Below are positions 4,550-14,123 of a stretch of DNA of 48,342 nt, in pieces. Origin of the DNA: Candidatus Avigastranaerophilus sp. GTDB taxonomy: Bacteria > Muiribacteriota > Ozemobacteria > Ozemobacterales > Ozemobacteraceae. Numbering within the stretch: position 1 is the first letter of the stretch; the number at the start of each line of letters is the position of its first letter. The translations under genes were made by a program, and so were the position numbers. The stretch lies in contig JAZUDR010000018.1 of NCBI GenBank assembly GCA_045639725.1, forward strand, positions 1-48,342, in the 5' to 3' direction. The notes beneath the pieces are model-generated. The model was not told where the DNA came from, searched no databases, and saw only the letters and a list, made by a program, of their open reading frames with translations.

Positions 4550-5259
4550 ATAATAAAACTGGTAAGGTTTTCCATGATTTAATGAAGAAGGGCTGGATTG
4601 ATAGAACAGAGAATCCCATTGCGTGGGAATGTTTTAATGAAGAAGGCGTTGAAGAAGAACTTAAGACACTTGGAGATGAATTAAATTTTGAAACTTATAG
4701 AATGGGCGATAGAATATATATCGTGCCTACTCAGGAAAATGATTTGTTTCTGAAAAATAATATAGATTATCGTCGCGATATTAAGGCAAGCAGTGAAGTA
4801 AGGGCGGCTGATTTATATTTGCTTAATTACTTAGCAGTTTATTTAATATATTTGATATATAAGGGCGAGGGTGATAACCCCAAATGCAGAGATTATATTG
4901 AAAAAGAAAATTTTGTTAAGTTATTTACCGAACATTGTAGAGAAGTTGAAAGCAAGGCCTTAGGCGAAGAAATAGTAAAAGCAGATTATAGTGAAAATTT
5001 TGTTCAGCTTGCAAAAGCATGGTTGCAGAAACCTGATGGAAAGCCGGTTGATAATAAAGCTCTTGATAGTAAATTCGGTATTGTTAATAAAATCCTAATA
5101 AAGCTAAAAGCAGACGGGTTGTTTAATGAAAAAGACGGTAACAAGATAGAACCGACAAGAAAGATGAATGATTTGATGCCATATTTTTTGAAAAAAGAAC
5201 GTATTGCTGCTATACAGAATTTCTTTAATGGAGAAGATGAAAATGCCACAAATTTGTAA
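4546..5259 (+). CDS. jetB: Wadjet JetB (KITE, MksE-like)
   Basis: 237 aa between the kleisin-like and SMC genes; overlaps both neighbours. Confidence 0.75.
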   Translation: MNNKTGKVFHDLMKKGWIDRTENPIAWECFNEEGVEEELKTLGDELNFETYRMGDRIYIVPTQENDLFLKNNIDYRRDIKASSEVRAADLYLLNYLAVYLIYLIYKGEGDNPKCRDYIEKENFVKLFTEHCREVESKALGEEIVKADYSENFVQLAKAWLQKPDGKPVDNKALDSKFGIVNKILIKLKADGLFNEKDGNKIEPTRKMNDLMPYFLKKERIAAIQNFFNGEDENATNL

Positions 5260-8200
5260 ATGTAGAATTGTAAACTTTAGATATAACGGTGGCAAGCGCC
5301 TTATTGCAGATGAATTATTTGATTTTGGTAATGAACTTGGCTTAGGTGCAAATAATGCTTTAATCGACATGGCAAACGGCATTGGTAAGACTGTAATGGT
5401 GCAACTAATGCTTCAGCCTATTATTCCAAATGCTAAGGTGTCTGGCAGAAGAATAGAAAGTTATTTCCAGAGACCAGAAGATCATTGTTTTGTTCTTTTA
5501 GAATGGATTCTTGATAACAGCAATGATAAGCTTGTTACCGGCATTGCAATGGCGGCAGGTGAAGAAATAGATACGGGAACTGATAATGAAAGTTCAGGAG
5601 GAAAGGGCAGGCGAGTAAGATACTATACTTTTTATACAAAGGAATCTGGCTCTTCCGAATATGATATTGCTCATTTACCACTTTCTAAGAAGGAAAAAGG
5701 TGCTTTTGTGCCTGCTTCCTTCAACGATATCAGGGAATTAGCCAAGAGGGCTAGAAATCATATTGCAACTTATTCTGCCGATTCAAACCGTGACTGGGGT
5801 AAAAAGATGGCTGAATTTGGTATTCTTCAAATGGAATGGCATACCGTCATGGAAAAACTCAACGTAAAAGAAGGTGGCATTAGTGACTTCTTTGAAGATT
5901 TTAAAGACTCTGATGATTTGATAGATAAATTATTAATACCAACAATTGAAAGACGTAGCGAAGCCATTAATTCAAGCAATGAAGATAATAGTCTCGAAAC
6001 CATGCTGATGAACCATTCTATTCAATATGGAAAGCAAAAGGAAAATATAGCTGAACGTGATTATTATCAGGAAGCAAGAAATGTTTTACTGAACCTGAAG
6101 AATGAGGCTGATTCTGTTGCTAATATAAATTATGCCTTTGAAACTGTTAACAGTGATATATGGGGTTTTTATCAGGCATTGACGCACCGTAGGGAAGAAC
6201 TACAGAATAAACAGGTCGAACTCAGAAATAAATTTGATTCTATTGTTGAAGAAGAAAGAAATATTTATTGGGAAAAGGCTTCCGCAGAATATTATGCAGC
6301 AGAAAGCAGATTTGAAGAAGTCAATGCTAATTTTAATGCTGCGGTTGAAGCTAGGCAAAGATGTGATAATGAATTAGCTATATCAGAAAAAGAACTGGCA
6401 AAGCTTGATTGTGCAAAAATACTTGGTGAAAAGCTTAATGCTGAAAGTAAAATAAAGGGGTTTAATGATTCTATTAGCGAAAAAGAAGGCGATGAGAAAA
6501 CAAAGAATGATATAAGAAATCTACAATATTCAGTTGCAAAACAACTGTCTACCGCTATTCCTAACAAAAAAGAAGAATTAAACAAATGCGAAAAAGGCTT
6601 AGAATTAAATGAGAAAAAACTAACTGAAGCTGTTGAACGTGAAAATAAATTACTTGAAAAGCAAAAATCCACTCAAAGCAGATATGATATAATCAATGGA
6701 AAGCTTGAATTATTACAGGAAAATAATGATAAACAAATAAATAAACTCGAAATAGAAGCGTTTCGAATGCTAGATGGGACTTTTGACGAATTAACTCTTG
6801 TTAACGCTCAAAAGAAAAAATGCACTGAAAAGGAATCCAGCGAAAAAGAAGTAGAAAAAGCAAAAATAGAATCAAAAACATTAGAAACTAAGTTCTCGGA
6901 CTTAGCTAATTCTATTAGAGATTGCAGTGGTGACCTCAAAGTAAAAGATTCTAAGTTATCTGACTTACAGAAGGAAATCGATGATTTTTATTTAATTGAA
7001 AATAAAATAAAGGATATTTATGGTAAATATTCTTCAGATTATTCACAACGAGCAACAGGAGCATTGAATAATTATATAGAATCAGAAATTAGAAAAGCAG
7101 AAGCTGAGAGAAATAAGATTACTAGAAAACTAGAAAATAGTAATGAAGAGTTAGTTGCTGCCAAAAAAGGTAGTTTGCATATTCCTACTGCTGCAGTTGT
7201 GTTTCTGGAAGAACATAGTTACGAATATGATACTTGCGAAAACTATTTGTTAAAACAAGTAAGAAATGAAAAAATCTCGCAGGAAAAATGTGATGATATT
7301 TTGGCTACAAATGCTTTTATTGCTTATGGTTTACTGATGAGTGAAAAGCAAAGAGATGTTTTGATTAATTCAGACTTGGATTATTGGCTGCCGTTTGGAG
7401 TGCCAATCATAACCTATTCTGAAATAGAAAAAGTATTATCTGGAGAAAATCTGAATAGTAGAATATTGGCTTTGTATTCAAAGAAATATTTTAATGACCC
7501 TTCTGAATTTGTTTTTAAATTGGAACAGGAAATCAATGATTTAAATAATAATCTGATTTTAATAAAATCAAGCATAAATGTTTATAATAGTGATTTGAAA
7601 GAAATTGTTGATTTTGCAGAAAAAGAAAAGAAAAACAAATCAAGATTAGATGAAAAAGTATCTTTGACTAGAGAAAAAGTTTTATTGGAAGATAAAATTA
7701 AAAAACTGGAAGAAGAATCAAATAAATGTAAAATAAAGCAATCGGAAATTAAAATAAAAATTGATAACTTATCTAATGCAATAAAAGACGCAAAATTCTG
7801 GTTAAAGTCATTTGATGAGTTGCTTGCTGGCTTAAAAGAAGAAAAAATATTGAATGAAGAGTCTGATGAATTATACAGCAAGCTAAGTGAACTAGCCATA
7901 GAACTTGCTTCTGTAAAGAAAGCAAAGAATGATTGTGAAAATAAAAAGCATGAACTGATAGAATTACAGTGTTCGTTAAAACGTGATATAGAACTGATGG
8001 AGAATGCTTTTGGTTTTGTAAAAAATGCAACAGAAGGAGATCTTATTGATGGAGAATGGACCAGTCTTTATCAGGAACTTAGGACAAGATTAGATTCTTT
8101 AAATGCAGATATTAAACAATTACGTGAAAGAATTGAAGAACAGAATAAATTCATAGAAAACTATAATAAGCAGTTAAATGAAAAGCATAATGAATATAGA

Positions 8201-9619
8201 ATTTCGATTGAAGATTATGCTGAGATTAATTATTCCGACGGTAAACGTGATATAGCAAAAGAACTTGTTTCCCGCAATAAAAGGGAATTGGAACAAAGCC
8301 GTGACAATCTGACTTTTATAAGTGGTGAAAAGGGCAAGTGTGAGGCTGCTTTTGAAACTTCCAGATTTAAACTGAAAGAATTCGGTAACAAAGCACTTGA
8401 AAGGGACAAAGTTGGTTCTGATTTTGAAAACAGATTGAAGGCAAAAGCAATCGAAAAATCAAAAATTAAATTTGAACAAGAAGAAAATGACAAGACTTAT
8501 TCAGATACAGACAAGGTCTGGGACTATGCTGATAGATTCTTAGACGGTAAACCTAAGCCAGAAAAGATTTCAGTAATAGATTTGAAAACTATCAATATTC
8601 GAAGTGAATATAATAAATTAAATAAAGTTTATGAAAAAGAATCTGATAAACTGAAGGAAGCCGAAAGGCAGCTTTTGATTTCTATCCAGACAAAAGGTAG
8701 CAAAATAAGTGAACAGCTTTCTTTGCTAGGCGATTCTATTTGCAAACTTTCCTATTTAATCACTAACAATCCTGATGGAGACAGATTCTATACTATTTCA
8801 GAGCGCTTAGACAATAATATTGAAAATGTAGATAAATCTATAAATCGTATTAAAAGCGACTTAGAAGACTTTGAAAAGTCTAAGGAGGATTTGATCCGAC
8901 AGTGTGTTCTTCAGGCTAAACGCGTTTATGAAGGTCTTAAAGATATAGTAAATGCTTCTAGAATAAAACTGAATGATGACGTTTCAAAGCATATTCTGCG
9001 TATCGATTTGCCTGAATTTGATGTAGAAATATCTCGTGGAAACATTGCTAGTGAAATTACAAAGGTTACAGAAGAATTAGCCGGCAAAATGGCTAATGGA
9101 GAAGACTGGGCAAAACTTCGGACTCAGGCTGGCAGAATGGTTTCAAGCAACCGCCTTCTTAGAATTTTCTTAAGTAAAGAACATATATCCTTAGAAGCGT
9201 ATAAGGTTGATGCAAATCCTAAGTTCTCAACATATCGCCAATGGGAAAATACTCAAATACAGAATTCTGGAGCTGAAAAGTTCCTGGCATATTTTGCGAT
9301 AATTGTTTCAATAATCAATTATAATCGCACAAAAGCAGGTGGTTTTAATAGTAAGGACCAGCGTTCGGTGCTTATCTTAGATAACCCGTTTGGTCCAATA
9401 TCATCGCCTCACGTTTTGCAGCCTATGTTCGATATGGCTGAAAAGCTTAAGGTTCAACTAATATGCTTCTCGAATATTACAAAAACTGATATTACTTCAA
9501 GATTCAAAGTAGTGATAAAAGCTATTGTTAAGCAGATAGCAGCTTCTAATTCTGAACTGCTGACTCACGAAGGCAATGAGCGGATTGAGCATGGCTACTA
9601 CAAACGTGAGATTTTCTAA
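5243..9619 (+). CDS. jetC: Wadjet JetC SMC-family ATPase
   Basis: N-terminal Walker A (MANGIGKT), about 1000 aa of coiled coil with a central hinge-like region, C-terminal signature SGAEKF and Walker B VLILDNPFG. Start 5243 inferred from the GGAG RBS (ORF track starts at 5204). Confidence 0.88.
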   Translation: MPQICKCRIVNFRYNGGKRLIADELFDFGNELGLGANNALIDMANGIGKTVMVQLMLQPIIPNAKVSGRRIESYFQRPEDHCFVLLEWILDNSNDKLVTGIAMAAGEEIDTGTDNESSGGKGRRVRYYTFYTKESGSSEYDIAHLPLSKKEKGAFVPASFNDIRELAKRARNHIATYSADSNRDWGKKMAEFGILQMEWHTVMEKLNVKEGGISDFFEDFKDSDDLIDKLLIPTIERRSEAINSSNEDNSLETMLMNHSIQYGKQKENIAERDYYQEARNVLLNLKNEADSVANINYAFETVNSDIWGFYQALTHRREELQNKQVELRNKFDSIVEEERNIYWEKASAEYYAAESRFEEVNANFNAAVEARQRCDNELAISEKELAKLDCAKILGEKLNAESKIKGFNDSISEKEGDEKTKNDIRNLQYSVAKQLSTAIPNKKEELNKCEKGLELNEKKLTEAVERENKLLEKQKSTQSRYDIINGKLELLQENNDKQINKLEIEAFRMLDGTFDELTLVNAQKKKCTEKESSEKEVEKAKIESKTLETKFSDLANSIRDCSGDLKVKDSKLSDLQKEIDDFYLIENKIKDIYGKYSSDYSQRATGALNNYIESEIRKAEAERNKITRKLENSNEELVAAKKGSLHIPTAAVVFLEEHSYEYDTCENYLLKQVRNEKISQEKCDDILATNAFIAYGLLMSEKQRDVLINSDLDYWLPFGVPIITYSEIEKVLSGENLNSRILALYSKKYFNDPSEFVFKLEQEINDLNNNLILIKSSINVYNSDLKEIVDFAEKEKKNKSRLDEKVSLTREKVLLEDKIKKLEEESNKCKIKQSEIKIKIDNLSNAIKDAKFWLKSFDELLAGLKEEKILNEESDELYSKLSELAIELASVKKAKNDCENKKHELIELQCSLKRDIELMENAFGFVKNATEGDLIDGEWTSLYQELRTRLDSLNADIKQLRERIEEQNKFIENYNKQLNEKHNEYRISIEDYAEINYSDGKRDIAKELVSRNKRELEQSRDNLTFISGEKGKCEAAFETSRFKLKEFGNKALERDKVGSDFENRLKAKAIEKSKIKFEQEENDKTYSDTDKVWDYADRFLDGKPKPEKISVIDLKTINIRSEYNKLNKVYEKESDKLKEAERQLLISIQTKGSKISEQLSLLGDSICKLSYLITNNPDGDRFYTISERLDNNIENVDKSINRIKSDLEDFEKSKEDLIRQCVLQAKRVYEGLKDIVNASRIKLNDDVSKHILRIDLPEFDVEISRGNIASEITKVTEELAGKMANGEDWAKLRTQAGRMVSSNRLLRIFLSKEHISLEAYKVDANPKFSTYRQWENTQIQNSGAEKFLAYFAIIVSIINYNRTKAGGFNSKDQRSVLILDNPFGPISSPHVLQPMFDMAEKLKVQLICFSNITKTDITSRFKVVIKAIVKQIAASNSELLTHEGNERIEHGYYKREIF

Positions 9620-9695
9620 CATCCCAATGTCTGGACTGGTGTGGTTTAAGGTGCTTTTACACTGTAGGACTGTAGGCCTTTTCGCTTGAATTAGG

Positions 9696-9724
9696 TTGTG
9701 AAAATACGAAGATTGGAGTATATT
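9696..9724 (+). promoter_or_regulatory. Sigma70-type promoter for the GNAT leader
   Basis: TTGTGA-17 nt-TATATT; predicted start near 9731, just before the first hairpin. Confidence 0.6.
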
Positions 9725-9730
9725 GTTTGC

Positions 9731-9904
9731 AACAAAGTCGCGTCAGGTGACTGACGGGCTTGGGCGTTAGCCTAATTTAATTTACGGTGAATGTTGTTTG
9801 AATAACACTTCTAAGATGGATATTGTTCGCTGAACCGGGAGGTTTGCGAATTATATCAAACCTCCTGATTTGCCAAAATAGTCGAACAAACTTAGGAGGA
9901 TAAA
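9731..9904 (+). promoter_or_regulatory. Structured 5' leader, candidate riboswitch or translational attenuator
   Basis: Three 5' hairpins (first CGTCAG-GTGA-CTGACG, GNRA loop) followed by mutually exclusive stems, one of which pairs CCTCCT with the AGGAGG SD. Confidence 0.65.
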
Positions 9905-10531
9905 ATGAAAAACGACTATATTATTCGAAAAGAAACTGAATCAGACTACTTTGAAGTAGAAAATCTTACTAGAGATGCCTTCTGGAATGTATACAGACCT
10001 GGCTGTCTTGAGCACTTTGTTTTACATAGATATCGCAGCTTACCTGGCTTTATTCCTGAATTGAGTTTATGCCTCATTGTAGACGGTAAACTAATAGGTC
10101 ACGTAATGTATGCTCATTCAGAAATAACAACTGATGATGGCAAGCATATTCCGATAATGACATTTGGCCCAATCAGTATTGCTCCGGAGTTCAAACGCAA
10201 GGGCTACGGCACTATTCTGTTGCGGGATTCCATGGAAAAGGCAAAACAGATGGGTGGCAAAGCTCTGGCAATCTGCGGAAATATCAATTTTTACGGCAAA
10301 TCCGGTTTTGTTGTCGCTAGCACAAAAGGTGTTCATTATTATGCTGAACCTAGAGAAAATGAAGTTCCATATTTTCTCATAAAGGAATTGGAAGAAGGCT
10401 TCTTGAGTGACGTCAACGGAACCTACAAGGACCCAGATGGCTACGATTGTGAAGGTGTAGATATCGACTCATTTGATTCGCAATTCCAGCCCAAGCAGAA
10501 ATTGAAGCTTCCTACCCAGATTTTCTCATAA
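9905..10531 (+). CDS. GNAT N-acetyltransferase (YhbS-like)
   Basis: IR.E...D...VE.LTR.AF start, FGPISIAPEFKRKGYG acetyl-CoA motif, G...FY.K.GF. Strong AGGAGG RBS. Confidence 0.88.
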   Translation: MKNDYIIRKETESDYFEVENLTRDAFWNVYRPGCLEHFVLHRYRSLPGFIPELSLCLIVDGKLIGHVMYAHSEITTDDGKHIPIMTFGPISIAPEFKRKGYGTILLRDSMEKAKQMGGKALAICGNINFYGKSGFVVASTKGVHYYAEPRENEVPYFLIKELEEGFLSDVNGTYKDPDGYDCEGVDIDSFDSQFQPKQKLKLPTQIFS

Positions 10532-10534
10532 TCG

Positions 10535-10584
10535 AAATCTATAAAAAAACCGTCTCTTTCGTGGAGGCGGGTTTTTATAGATTT
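10535..10584 (+). terminator. Intrinsic terminator
   Basis: AAATCTATAAAAA..CCGTCTC-loop-GAGGCGG..TTTTTATAGATTT hairpin directly after the stop codon. Confidence 0.75.
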
Positions 10585-10728
10585 GATTACGATAATGTTT
10601 CAAATTGTTTAAGCTTATTCATAAAACCGTGATTGTTAGAAAGATTCTAGTTTGCGAAAGGGTAGATGGTATGATAAATTAAATTTATATTATGGTCATT
10701 TCTCTGTGTTTTGAAAGGTAATAGACGA

Positions 10729-11958
10729 ATGTATTGTTATAAGTGTGGCAAAAGCTGGAAAAATGTTAATGGTACTAACCAGACTAGATTCTGCCCATTT
10801 TGCATGGCTACTTTAATAGGAGAAATACCTGTTGATAAATCAGAGGAACCGTCACAGGTAATAAAAGACATTGCTGAAGGCAAATACGGTGCTTACACTA
10901 TTTATAATCAAGAAAAGTGTAGCAGTTTATTTGCTAATTTAATACATGAGAAAAAAGATCGTAATTTATTGGAAATCCTGCTTAAATTAGGTGTTGCTGA
11001 TAGTTTTAATAAGAATAGTAATGAATTAAGCGATTCTGATAAAGAAAAGCTTATTAAAAGCGTTCGTGATAGTCTTTATAACGATTATTTTTCCGAAAAG
11101 CGCTTAAGCGAAGGTATAAATTGGTTTGCCAAGGCCTTGTTAGACGTTAACGAACAACAGGCAGAAAATGATGATACACAGTCTGAATCTAGCCAAGAAC
11201 AGACTTTGGATCAATTATTTACATTTTTAAAGCAGATTTTTAATATTGAGCTTGTTCTTTGTCCTGCAGGTACGTTTATGATGGGAAGTCCAATAAACGA
11301 ACTCGGGCGTTTTAATTGGGAAATTTATCATAAGGTAACTATTAGCAGTGATTTTTATATTGCTAGATTTCCTGTAACACAAGCTTTGTATAAAGCTGTT
11401 ATGGGGAATAACCCTTCTAAGTTTAAAGGGGATAATTGTCCTGTTGAACGTGTAAACTGGTTTAAGGCAAAAGAGTTTTGTGACAGACTGAATGAACAAA
11501 CCTTTTCAGTAAGACCGTCTGAATACAGATTTGATTTACCGACAGAAGCTCAGTGGGAATATGCCTGCCGCGCAGGCACAACAACCTCTCTGAACAGTGG
11601 TAAAAATATTATAACAGAAACCGGCAACTGCTCTGAACTTGATAGAGTTGGCTGGTATTATTTGAATTCTGGTGATAAGACTCATCAGGTTGGCGCTAAG
11701 AAGCCTAACTCATGGGGTATTTATGATATGCATGGCAATGTGTGGGAATGGTGTCGCGATTGGTATGGCGATTATCCCTCCGGGAACTGTATCGACCCAG
11801 AAGGTCCTGAAACAGGTATCAAACGCGTAGGCCGCGGTGGTGGAAGAGACAGCAGCCCAAGAAACTGCCGCTCTGCAAATCGTAACTATGACTTTCCTGG
11901 AAGTGAAGACAGTCGCCTCGGTTTCCGTCTAGCATTAGTGCCAACATCAAAAAAATAA
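10729..11958 (+). CDS. Zinc-ribbon plus helical domain plus FGE/SUMF1 (FGE-sulfatase) domain protein
   Basis: CYKC..CPFC; C-terminal GTFMMGS, PVTQ, PVERVNW, LPTEAQWEYACRAG, GIYDMHGNVWEWC and GFRL motifs. ATG 10729 preferred over TTG 10711. Confidence 0.88.
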   Translation: MYCYKCGKSWKNVNGTNQTRFCPFCMATLIGEIPVDKSEEPSQVIKDIAEGKYGAYTIYNQEKCSSLFANLIHEKKDRNLLEILLKLGVADSFNKNSNELSDSDKEKLIKSVRDSLYNDYFSEKRLSEGINWFAKALLDVNEQQAENDDTQSESSQEQTLDQLFTFLKQIFNIELVLCPAGTFMMGSPINELGRFNWEIYHKVTISSDFYIARFPVTQALYKAVMGNNPSKFKGDNCPVERVNWFKAKEFCDRLNEQTFSVRPSEYRFDLPTEAQWEYACRAGTTTSLNSGKNIITETGNCSELDRVGWYYLNSGDKTHQVGAKKPNSWGIYDMHGNVWEWCRDWYGDYPSGNCIDPEGPETGIKRVGRGGGRDSSPRNCRSANRNYDFPGSEDSRLGFRLALVPTSKK

Positions 11959-12122: not shown

Positions 12123-14123
12123 ATGTCACTGCAAATAAACAATTTAACTAAAGCTTTTAGCGTTAGAACGCTGTTTTCTGGGGTAACCTTCTCTGTAAAT
12201 CCGGGCGAATGTGTTGCACTTGTCGGCAATAACGGTACTGGTAAGTCTACTATGATGAAAATCATAATGGGCTTAGAGCATGCTGATACTGGCACTGTAA
12301 CAAGTCCAAAGGATGCTAAGATTGGTCATCTGCCTCAGGAAATTTTTCTGTCAGAAAATGGTCTGTGGGAAACAGAAAAAGAAACCCTGACTCTTTGGGA
12401 ATTAGCAACTCAGGCTTTTGATGGCCTTAAAAAAATAAAAGAACGCATTGAGGCTCTTGAAGCCCAGATGGCTGAAGGCAACATCGAAGAAAAGATTCAC
12501 GAAGAATACGAAAGACTTATTGCCAATTATGAAAAAGAAGGCGGTTATACTTGGCAGGCAAAAACTATCAGATTACTGAAGGGCTTTGGATTTGCTGAAG
12601 ACCGTTTTCACGAACCGCTAAGAAATTTCTCGGGCGGTTGGCAGATGAGAGCTTATTTTGCAAGACTTTTGCTTACAGAACCTGATTACTTGCTACTGGA
12701 CGAACCGACAAACTATCTTGATATTGCTTCCATTGCTTTCTTGGAAGACTATTTGAGCAATTACCAGGGTGGCATTCTTGTTGTCTCTCATGATAGATAT
12801 TTCCTTGATGAATTGGCAACATCAGTTGTAGCAATAGTTCCAGAAGGTTCAAGAACCTTTAGAGGAAATTATTCTGCTTTCCTTGAAGCTCGCGAGGAAT
12901 GGGCTGCAGAAGCCGCTGCAGCGCAGGAACGTCAGGATAAGGAAAGAAAAAGAATAGAACGTTTTGTAGAACGCTTTAGATATAAGGCTACAAAGGCTAC
13001 TCAGGTCCAGAGCCGCATTAAGACTCTGGAAAAGATGACTGAGATTGCCCAGATCCGTTCTTTACCAAAGCTAAGCTTTAGATTTCCTGACTGTGAACCT
13101 AGTGGTGAAGTTGTTCTTCGCGGTGAGCATGTAACAAAAGCTTTCGGAAATCATCAGGTTTTGAAGGATGTCAATTTTGTTATTAATCGTGGTGACAGAG
13201 TAGCAATTATCGGTGAAAATGGGGCTGGTAAGACCACCCTCGTTAGAATATTGGTTGGTGAAGACAATCTTTGGGGCGGTCGTCTTGAAAGCGGGTATAG
13301 AACTCATTTAGGTTATTTCGCTCAGGATGAAGAAATTAGTTTCGAAGGTGAGGAAACCATCGAAGATAGAATGCTTCGCGAAGCACCATTTGACGCTGTT
13401 CCTGAAGTAAGGAATATTTTAGGTGCTTTCCTGTTCTCTGGTGATGATGTAAAAAAGATGGTCAAGGTGTTGTCTGGCGGAGAAAAGAGCAGGTTAGGTC
13501 TGGCTAGAATGATGTTGAGACCCTGTAACGTTTTGATTCTTGACGAACCGACAAATCATCTTGATATTAGCAGCCGTGAGGCTTTACTTAATGCATTGGA
13601 TGATTTCCCGGGTACGGTAATAATTGTATCTCATGACAGATTTTTCCTTGATTCATTAGCAACACGCATTTTGAGTATTGAAAACGGAAAATCAATTTTG
13701 TATGATGGTAACTATAGCCAATACATGTGGGCTAGGGAGCGTCGGCTTGCTGATGAAGCTGATTCTATACAAGCTCAAGGTGTTGCTGGAATAGCTGCTT
13801 CAGTAAAAATTCCTGATGCAAAACAACAGGCTAGAGATACTGTGAAACAACAGAAGCAGCTTTCCAATAAGCTTCAAAAGCTTAAAAAAGATATTGAAGC
13901 CAAGGAAAACGAAATTGCTGAATTGGAAACAAAAATCAGTGAAGTTGAAGGTCAGTTGGCAGCACCACCTGATGGCTGGTCACCTGCTAAGATAGCAGAG
14001 GTTGCACAGCAGCATTCGGTTTTAAATGTTAAGCTTGATGAGGCTATGCAGGCTTGGGAGGATTTGAATTCTGAAAATGAGCAAACCTCCGAAGAATTGA
14101 AAGCGATTAGAGAAGGCAGATAA
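12123..14123 (+). CDS. ABC-F family ribosome-associated ATPase (YheS/YdiF/Uup-like)
   Basis: Two ABC domains (GNNGTGKS, FSGGW, LLLDEPTN; GENGAGKT, LSGGE, LILDEPTNHLD), interdomain linker, C-terminal coiled coil, no TM segments. Confidence 0.93.
   Translation: MSLQINNLTKAFSVRTLFSGVTFSVNPGECVALVGNNGTGKSTMMKIIMGLEHADTGTVTSPKDAKIGHLPQEIFLSENGLWETEKETLTLWELATQAFDGLKKIKERIEALEAQMAEGNIEEKIHEEYERLIANYEKEGGYTWQAKTIRLLKGFGFAEDRFHEPLRNFSGGWQMRAYFARLLLTEPDYLLLDEPTNYLDIASIAFLEDYLSNYQGGILVVSHDRYFLDELATSVVAIVPEGSRTFRGNYSAFLEAREEWAAEAAAAQERQDKERKRIERFVERFRYKATKATQVQSRIKTLEKMTEIAQIRSLPKLSFRFPDCEPSGEVVLRGEHVTKAFGNHQVLKDVNFVINRGDRVAIIGENGAGKTTLVRILVGEDNLWGGRLESGYRTHLGYFAQDEEISFEGEETIEDRMLREAPFDAVPEVRNILGAFLFSGDDVKKMVKVLSGGEKSRLGLARMMLRPCNVLILDEPTNHLDISSREALLNALDDFPGTVIIVSHDRFFLDSLATRILSIENGKSILYDGNYSQYMWARERRLADEADSIQAQGVAGIAASVKIPDAKQQARDTVKQQKQLSNKLQKLKKDIEAKENEIAELETKISEVEGQLAAPPDGWSPAKIAEVAQQHSVLNVKLDEAMQAWEDLNSENEQTSEELKAIREGR

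Follow-up and report, generated by a model that had tools for sequence, protein, structure and literature searches.

What kind of switch is encoded by the leader of a bacterial acetyltransferase gene? The question is raised by a 48,342-nucleotide (nt) stretch of DNA from Candidatus Avigastranaerophilus sp. (contig JAZUDR010000018.1, here called the window), in which an intergenic leader at 9696-9907 lies upstream of a 208-amino acid (aa) N-acetyltransferase gene of the GNAT family (9905-10531, +). A first-pass annotation of the sequence had offered two answers for this leader, an orphan riboswitch or a ribosome-stalling attenuator. With moderate confidence, we regard it as a leader-peptide translational attenuator of the erm/cat type and not as a ligand-binding riboswitch. 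The features of the erm/cat class that can be looked for in sequence were all found, namely an open reading frame (ORF) with a Shine-Dalgarno sequence (SD) upstream on the same transcript, sequestration of the downstream SD, and an alternative pairing that frees this SD, the last of these in silico.

Two alternative folds of the leader RNA

The first evidence comes from folding the RNA from 9731 to 9915, the elements of which are listed in Table 1. Left unmasked, this RNA has a minimum free energy (MFE) of -54.9 kcal/mol (z -4.14, with 0 of 200 shuffles equal), and its MFE fold is an OFF state. Hairpins P1 and P2 are followed by segment 1 paired with segment 2b (9819-9830/9846-9857) and by the anti-SD of segment 3 paired with segment 4 (9861-9872/9887-9899), which buries the AGGAGG of the GNAT gene. 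When 9798-9833 is deleted, refolding gives an 11-base pair ON hairpin (9836-9846/9857-9867, -17.2 kcal/mol) with the GNAT SD unpaired. When the deletion is extended to 9798-9842, the anti-SD:SD helix comes back. Both the OFF stems and the ON stem had been drawn in the first-pass annotation, and the OFF fold together with the behavior of the two deletions indicates that the stems are real.

Distribution of the leader

Relatives of the locus can be used to judge which parts of the leader are maintained. Orthologous GNATs (78-89% identity) are present in 5 of 6 other genomes of the genus, where the upstream flanks are unrelated and approximately 175 nt before the start codon are conserved. A covariance model built from the six genus leaders only gives one match per genome in 6 of the 7 genus genomes, always before the GNAT gene, and a repeat search finds the leader DNA in single copy in the window's genome. 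The same model matched 0 of 44 genomes of the family (Gastranaerophilaceae) outside the genus, which implies that the leader has not spread vertically within the family. Taken with the 75% identity of the window GNAT to GNATs of Clostridia metagenome-assembled genomes, this suggests that gene and leader may have been acquired together.

For the comparison beyond the genus, the set consists of the 80 closest GNAT loci in a species-representative genome collection (52-89% identical), found mostly in Oscillospiraceae and other Clostridia, with some in Fibrobacter. The genus-only model detects the leader immediately before the GNAT gene in 29 of 79 non-genus loci (E <= 0.05). These non-genus leaders have an AGGAGA-type SD, a gap of 6-9 nt, and a TTG with a frame of 10-11 codons that continues into the frame read as MDIVR-stop in the window. 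A regular expression for the full architecture, which demands a first SD (SD1), an ORF, a purine box past the stop, an anti-SD, and a second SD with a start codon, is matched by 45 of 85 loci: 6 from Melainabacteria, 36 mostly from Clostridia and Negativicutes, and 3 from Fibrobacter. This count is a lower bound, as L053, L072, L073, L079, and L094 have the architecture by eye yet miss the expression.

Sampling of Oscillospiraceae genomes gave a similar picture, with a strict leader pattern in 16 of 401 genomes and none in the reversed control. A GNAT gene lies 101-122 nt downstream of 15 of these matches and of three more from named genomes; in the 16th match (L121) the spacing differs. Two copies are carried by Oscillibacter valericigenes (L029 and L030), a species that can be cultivated. 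One Oscillospiraceae leader, L111, has 10 N between anti-anti-SD and anti-SD and was excluded from the structure statistics. By these pattern matches, the leader family appears to be widespread in gut bacteria of three phyla.

Covariation and geometry of the three-helix switch

Throughout the family the leader stop codon is followed by the same series of elements, which begins with a GGGAGG-type anti-anti-SD (segment 2a) and, past some variable sequence, continues with an anti-SD of the CCTCC type, a loop, and the downstream gene's SD, GGAGG. The distance from the stop to the GGGAGG-type box is 2-4 nt in 42/42 non-Fibrobacter leaders and 6 nt in the 3 Fibrobacter leaders. Covariation across homologous GNAT leaders, a check on the first-pass stems, was assessed with a swap test, in which the duplex energy of a segment with its own partner is set against that with partners from other sequences over 2000 permutations. 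For segment 1:2b (H1) the energy is -9.9 kcal/mol with the own partner and -6.3 with swapped ones (z -9.9), for the ON helix (H2) -13.0 and -10.9 (z -5.7), and for the OFF helix (H3) -11.2 and -8.9 (z -8.2); each time 0/2000 permutations were as good, counts that are not true probabilities because the sequences are related. Two control segment pairs gave z values of -0.8 and +0.6, which argues against a pure lineage or composition effect. The position next to the GGAGG:CCTCC core of the ON helix also forms a pair in 35 of 38 distinct sequences (TA 14, CG 12, TG 8, GC 1). The genus alignment agrees with the OFF structure as well, with 79.8% of cells paired, compared with 30-54% for slid partners, and six pairs changing on both sides. 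Its helix 4 (segment 1/2b) is 90.5% paired, with two such pairs.

The geometry of the switch can be explored with a stand-in for the ribosome, in which all sequence up to a moving 3′ edge is masked and the edge is counted from the first base of the stop codon. Over the 45 leaders, the mean probability that the GNAT SD is unpaired is 0.22 with no mask (0.11 in the window). It is 0.53-0.59 with the edge at -3 to +3 (0.98 in the window), 0.03-0.07 at +9 to +27 (0.00-0.03 in the window), and above 0.55 at +36 and beyond. Measured by unwinding, the edge of a ribosome lies 12-13 nt from where the P-site codon begins. A nuclease footprint puts it at 16-18 nt (PMC12121999). Combining the opening window with the footprint places the P site on a Thr, Leu, Glu, or Ile codon, that is, on the conserved motif described in the next section, a placement that hinges on the assumed footprint and shifts by 1-2 codons with it. 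In this model, the GNAT SD would be exposed only with a ribosome on the Thr-Leu-Glu-Ile codons, and a terminating ribosome would lock the SD shut.

The reopening of the SD beyond +36 invites a different explanation, in which the leader acts as a sensor of stop-codon read-through. Under miscoding drugs, ribosomes would continue past the end of the leader ORF and pull the anti-SD:SD helix apart. In many leaders the stop is TGA with C as the next base, a context that is leaky in E. coli. However, the position of the next in-frame stop is not conserved in the 45 leaders and is no better than in the other two frames. This stop precedes the anti-SD in 4 leaders, falls in the interval from the anti-SD to the SD in 7, overlaps the SD or the start codon in 14, and lies past the GNAT start in 20. 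A read-through sensor was rejected on this basis, and we consider it extremely improbable.

The leader ORF and its peptide motif

Arrest on the leader requires that the leader be translated, and several features of the ORF argue for this. In 45 of the 85 GNAT loci it is conserved in frame, and an SD-like motif (GGAGA, AGGAG, or GGTGA) is found 5-9 nt before the start in 45/45 of these leaders, although the regular expression demanded one. Coding statistics were drawn from these 45 leaders and 14 from the Oscillospiraceae sample (59 leaders, 53 distinct ORFs). The distinct ORFs contain 10, 11, or 12 sense codons (13, 36, and 4 cases), which means that length changes come in multiples of three. 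They start with TTG in 50 cases and ATG in 3, and they stop at TGA in 35, TAA in 14, and TAG in 4. The peptide consensus is MK(x)NNTLEIVx-stop, in which the motif (L/M)(E/D)I(V/A) is nearly universal. Counting back from the stop, codons -5 to -2 encode L in 42/50 leaders, E or D in 50/50, I in 43/50, and V or A in 50/50, with Thr or Ala at codon -6 in 43/50. The codons themselves vary: Val at -2 is GTG in 19, GTA in 8, GTC in 8, and GTT in 6 (the remainder is Ala), Leu at -5 is TTG in 36, CTG in 4, and TTA in 2, and Thr at -6 is ACC in 31, ACA in 6, and ACT in 3. The Fibrobacter leaders, MLFSKSWFIV-stop and its relatives, have their stop immediately past Val. From this codon-type variation the leader ORF looks translated. 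Segment 1, which spans the E-I-V-x codons, is almost fixed, whereas its partner 2b varies by lineage in both sequence and register. This implies that segment 1 is constrained beyond pairing, as would be expected if the peptide matters too.

The first-pass annotation had noticed two tiny upstream ORFs here. One of them, MLFE-stop (9791-9805), is not conserved, as its ATG is present in only 2/6 genus leaders. The other, MDIVR-stop (9816-9833), was right in its frame, which is conserved, and wrong in its extent; it is not a separate ORF lacking an SD but the last five codons of the ORF at 9798-9833, which has SD1.

Single codons may also be read as sensors of amino acid supply. A pause at the Leu, Glu/Asp, Ile, or Val codon on scarcity of charged tRNA, for instance under branched-chain limitation or a tRNA-synthetase inhibitor, could free the SD without a dedicated arrest peptide. 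With these codons in the A site, a pause does lie within the window that opens the SD, conservation is seen at Leu, Ile, and Val, and some GNATs detoxify aminoacyl-adenylate analogs (MccE/RimL). However, attenuators of the trp/his/leu/ilv type use a run of regulatory codons, and here there is one codon of each kind, with Leu, Ile, and Val present singly and not in tandem. The cargo described below (GNAT, RNHCP, nitroreductase) is not amino acid biosynthetic, and the Glu position is Asp in 9/50 leaders, which a single tRNA species would not readily explain. We therefore think a hungry-codon attenuator rather unlikely. The ON hairpin was likewise considered as a transcription terminator and rejected because most members have no U-tract. 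A U-rich stretch past this hairpin was seen by eye in four genus members only and not in Firmicute leaders, and a terminator scan found no terminator-like site between the leader ORF and the GNAT start.

The 5′ hairpins and the riboswitch alternative

Upstream of the ORF, the first-pass annotation had placed three hairpins. P1 and P2 are both part of the MFE fold. The third, P3 (9792-9807), did not hold as a conserved hairpin: at -4.0 kcal/mol (z -1.1) it is weak in the window, its mean z is -0.33 over 41 distinct leaders, and it overlaps the leader start codon. A hairpin within the 44 nt upstream of SD1 is a general feature of the family (mean z -2.3, with z < -1.5 in 31 of 44 distinct leaders) and is often preceded by a -10-like hexamer 37-50 nt before SD1. 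The mRNA probably begins with this 5′ hairpin, and hairpins of the P2 type are probably stabilizers or insulators.

These structures are what an orphan riboswitch would need, with P1, P2, and the linker forming a ligand-binding aptamer that drives the same SD-sequestering platform, and leader translation unneeded. The leader is indeed strongly structured and its expression platform is genuine; P1 has a loop of the GNRA type and, among its 11 pairs, 2 that change on both sides in the six genus sequences (AU/CG, UA/AU), and the 20-nt linker is invariant in all six. Yet a conserved aptamer was not found. P1 is absent from the non-genus GNAT leaders, and the sequence of P1 and linker is confined to the genus, whereas the ORF and the platform span three phyla. 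Other taxa retain a generic hairpin of unrelated sequence upstream of SD1. The invariant linker contains SD1 and the leader initiation region, and the variation downstream is codon-like. The first-pass annotation could not assign the leader to a known family, and Rfam 15 gave no matches at gathering thresholds over the whole window. A permissive search of 9600-9960 returned only noise (E > 3, best 3.7), and among eight Firmicute loci there were no Rfam matches in the leaders, the lone match being a tRNA elsewhere in L025. In light of these results a riboswitch, the first of the two original proposals, is very unlikely. The second, the ribosome-stalling attenuator, is favored by the conserved coding-type ORF with its SD, by the three partner-specific helices, and by the geometry of SD exposure.

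Proposed mechanism and comparison with known attenuators

The leader-peptide attenuator could operate as follows. A transcript would start near 9731 with one or two 5′ hairpins, and ribosomes would translate the 11-codon leader ORF (9798-9833) with its conserved C-terminal motif (L/M)(E/D)IVx-stop. By default segment 1 would pair with 2b, the anti-SD of segment 3 would hold the GNAT SD in segment 4, and the GNAT gene would stay untranslated. Arrest with a Thr, Leu, Glu, or Ile codon in the P site would place the ribosome over segment 1 but not over 2a. The free 2a could then capture the anti-SD, which would release the GNAT SD and allow translation. In contrast, a ribosome at the stop codon would cover 2a, erase the ON helix, and reset the switch to OFF. 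Such a reset by termination would explain why the stop always lies just before the anti-anti-SD. We infer that arrest occurs at the LEIV motif, and the trigger would be a small molecule on the ribosome, most likely a translation inhibitor that is countered by the regulated genes.

This proposal has clear precedents. In ermC, as here, a short leader ORF with its own SD contains a segment 1 that pairs with segment 2, while segment 3 pairs with the SD in segment 4, and a ribosome stalled on segment 1 allows 2:3 pairing and frees the SD. The C terminus of ErmCL, IFVI, is beta-branched and hydrophobic and resembles the LEIV found here. There are also differences: the leaders here have 10-12 codons compared with 19 in ErmCL, the peptides are unrelated, the stop lies directly before the anti-anti-SD so that a terminating ribosome would reset the switch, and the cargo is a YhbS-like GNAT, an RNHCP protein, or a nitroreductase instead of an rRNA methylase. 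The cat86 and cmlA leaders are very short (approximately 9 codons), have their SD in a hairpin, and precede an acetyltransferase, in their case a drug-inactivating one. They also have Thr, Ser, or Ala before the presumed stall residue, which can be compared with the Thr or Ala at codon -6 noted above. The cat system, however, has a single hairpin in place of a three-way switch, CAT enzymes fall outside the GNAT family, and the window leader has Lys at -6. The leaders of the ABC-F resistance genes vmlR and msrD are reportedly leader-ORF-dependent attenuators of Firmicutes that are induced by ribosome inhibitors, as proposed here, and they are said to work mainly through transcription attenuation with terminators, whereas the switch here is mostly without a U-tract terminator.

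PMC12121999 adds two points of comparison. It gives Ile9 as the site of ermCL stalling, and it describes toiL, a short upstream ORF of the E. coli topAI-yjhQP operon that pairs with the downstream SD, which stalling unmasks, as proposed here. According to the same source, toiL senses several classes of ribosome-targeting antibiotics, and its cargo has no obvious resistance function. It differs from the present leader in using Rho termination and direct pairing of ORF and SD, with no anti-anti-SD relay, an enterobacteria-only distribution, and an unrelated peptide. In the full-text literature, subscription-only papers such as the original Term-seq study being outside the reach of the search, neither a leader peptide before such a GNAT nor the peptide motif was found described, and nothing was found on RNHCP proteins. 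The leader family therefore appears to be undescribed, within a known class of leader-peptide attenuators.

Cargo genes

The window GNAT matches Pfam Acetyltransf_1/9/7, and its AlphaFold model (predicted local distance difference test score 93.5) has E. coli YhbS as its best fold match in the PDB (4rs2, template modeling score 0.73/0.83). The next fold matches are generic GNATs including AAC(2'), Eis, and NATs, which reflect the general fold only. More specific names were not obtained: NCBIfam gave only sub-threshold Eis and RimI matches, sequence matches in the PDB are unnamed acetyltransferases, the Atlas name is 'GNAT family N-acetyltransferase', and a plasmid search returned only distant or megaplasmid GNAT copies annotated as N-acetyltransferase. 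The family itself is large, and approximately 2500 stored stretches in species-representative genomes match GNAT patterns.

A strict pattern that runs from the end of the leader into the anti-anti-SD was found at 120 metagenome loci, of an estimated total of approximately 240. A GNAT gene follows in 71, and a GNAT with a truncated start in 3 more by eye. In 12 loci the leader is followed instead by an RNHCP-domain protein, of the zinc-ribbon kind. Four of these were assigned by Pfam (PF12647; L125, L132, L196, and L198, approximately 142 aa), six (L135, L139, L165, L187, L199, and L231) have the leader sequence of L132, five of them also its protein, and two (L186 and L214) were assigned by eye from the N-terminus. 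The LEIVx-stop leader and three-segment switch of the GNAT loci recur at the RNHCP loci, with differing N-terminal halves of the peptide such as MKLSRELEIVR-stop and MKTIIGALEIVA-stop. An RNHCP gene was not found in the window's genome (97.8% complete). One further locus encodes a nitroreductase-family protein (PF00881; L170:127-738, -), and its leader, MKKNNTLEIVG-stop, is a peptide also found among the GNAT leaders. Approximately 27 of the 120 loci have none of the leader features and are probably chance matches. Judged from these loci, the leader appears to be a portable module with at least three unrelated cargo families.

A leader that is independent of any signal must be weighed against this picture. 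Without any specific arrest, the upstream ORF and hairpins might simply keep basal translation low, set the stability of the mRNA, or serve as a thermometer. This would fit with the default sequestration of the SD, with the common role of 5′ hairpins as stabilizers, and with the lack of a known inducer. But a simple damper needs neither a peptide motif nor a conserved 2-4-nt distance from stop to anti-anti-SD, it would have no use for three mutually exclusive helices that covary across phyla, and the same module stands before three unrelated gene families. We judge this explanation unlikely.

Several points weigh against the leader-peptide attenuator as well, in addition to the relatedness of the swap-test sequences and the assumed footprint of the masking model. 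Leader translation, ribosome arrest, and induction are all inferred from sequence. The leader start is TTG in 50/53 ORFs, and SD1 of the window is only GGTGA. The N-terminal K, N, N, and T are less conserved in Melainabacteria, Fibrobacter, and RNHCP leaders, which leaves it ambiguous which residues matter, and the window and its closest relative carry Lys, not Thr, Ala, or Ser, before Met-Asp. In the metagenome set the invariance of LEI is circular, as the pattern required TTGGAGATTG. Lastly, the GNAT has no detectable link to a known resistance enzyme beyond the general fold.

A distant relative provides a different kind of clue. A 30%-identical homolog of the GNAT forms the N-terminal domain of a 527-aa protein annotated rsgA/RsgA on a replicon of Roseburia sp. 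831b (L242:2600-4566). By eye, its leader contains a 22-codon ORF beginning MNKKMAIVR and, 3′ of it, a hairpin with a T-run that resembles a terminator. RsgA is a GTPase of 30S assembly, and the fusion is a hint that this GNAT clade may be connected with the small ribosomal subunit.

Bacteria classically use leader-peptide attenuators to express resistance genes only in the presence of a ribosome-targeting drug. A wider interpretation can be offered, tentatively and with considerable doubt. The LEIVx-stop leader could be a portable ribosome-borne sensor for one class of translation inhibitor made in anaerobic gut communities, its cargo could form an unrecognized inducible regulon for resistance or ribosome repair, and the GNAT could be a new drug-inactivating or ribosome-modifying acetyltransferase. 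Given the combination of acetyltransferase and nitroreductase cargo, one candidate signal would be a chloramphenicol-type nitro-aromatic drug, with its binding site in the peptidyl-transferase center. A new and widespread leader family would mark the genes that follow it as probable responders to translation stress and may serve as an entry point to the function of the large YhbS-like GNAT family and of RNHCP proteins. It may also provide a compact natural sensor, the inducer of which can be screened for with a reporter. Care must be taken with similar cases, since here a structured, covarying, riboswitch-like leader can be explained by a TTG-initiated mini-ORF.

Transcription unit and neighboring genes

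Table 1. Elements of the leader and gene, with positions in the window and the basis of each assignment.
Element	Position	Strand	Description	Basis
Putative sigma-70-type promoter	9696-9724	+	-35 TTGTGA 9696-9701, 17-nt spacer, -10 TATATT 9719-9724; predicted +1 ~9731	Consensus scan
P1 hairpin	9735-9761	+	GTGA loop; genus-specific 5′ structure	MFE fold; genus alignment
P2 hairpin	9761-9774	+	5′-proximal; common to family	MFE fold
SD1	9786-9790	+	GGTGA of leader ORF, 7 nt before TTG start	Within genus-invariant linker
Leader ORF	9798-9833	+	MNNTSKMDIVR-stop; TTG start, 11 sense codons, stop TGA 9831-9833	In-frame conservation
Segment 1	9819-9830	+	Codons D-I-V-R; OFF partner is segment 2b	MFE fold; swap test H1
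Segment 2a	9836-9846	+	Anti-anti-SD (C-GGGAGG-TTTG), 2-3 nt past leader stop; ON partner is segment 3	Refolding; swap test H2
Segment 2b	9846-9857	+	OFF partner of segment 1; loop of ON hairpin	MFE fold; swap test; genus alignment
Segment 3	9857-9872	+	Anti-SD (CAAA-CCTCC-TGATTTG); pairs with 2a (ON) or GNAT SD (OFF)	Folds; swap tests H2 and H3
Segment 4	9887-9899	+	CAAACTT + AGGAGG; GNAT SD is 9894-9899	Paired in free leader
GNAT gene	9905-10531	+	YhbS-like GNAT N-acetyltransferase, 208 aa	Pfam; AlphaFold model; fold search
Terminator-like hairpin	10550-10579	+	Intrinsic-terminator type with T-run, 3′ of GNAT gene	Terminator scan

The first-pass annotation had placed the transcription start near 9731, and the promoter on which this was based is present. 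By itself it is not above chance, as the promoter scan gave three sites where 4.7 were expected. The other members of the genus concur by eye. All 6/6 orthologues have -35/-10-like boxes of their own just upstream of the onset of conservation, in flanks that are otherwise unrelated. In the other five these read TTGAC(A/T) or TTGCAA with a -10-like box, at a distance to P1 equal to that in the window. Conservation that begins a few bases past each locus's own boxes supports a start near 9731. At the other end, the terminator-like hairpin past the gene implies that the GNAT is a monocistronic unit. An RNA-library contig of 175 nt matches 9800-9974 without difference and covers the leader and the GNAT start; it points weakly to their expression, given that such contigs show no transcript ends or levels and that DNA carry-over is possible.

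DNA contigs of three other samples (95-99% alike) reveal the variation of the locus. Within 9734-9904 the listed differences are confined to 9767, 9768, and 9783, and the leader ORF and switch are untouched. Differences in the same contigs cluster in 64 nt of the GNAT gene (10183-10246), which may reflect either a patch of recombination or a substrate-facing segment that varies.

Adjoining the leader upstream (5204-9619, +) is a gene for a 1471-aa coiled-coil protein with no Pfam match, which PADLOC matches end to end to JetC of Wadjet type III (DUF3584, E 4e-102); by this match the GNAT unit lies directly after a Wadjet-type defense gene. Downstream of the GNAT by 1.6 kb (12123-14123, +) is a 666-aa ABC-F ATPase with two ABC_tran domains, an ABC_tran_Xtn linker, and an ABC_tran_CTD, and ABC-F proteins include ribosome-protection resistance factors. 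The gene at 10711-11958 (+) encodes a protein of 415 aa that has a Cys-rich, zinc-ribbon-like stretch at the N-terminus and an FGE-sulfatase domain (SUMF1-like, E 8e-41) at the C-terminus.

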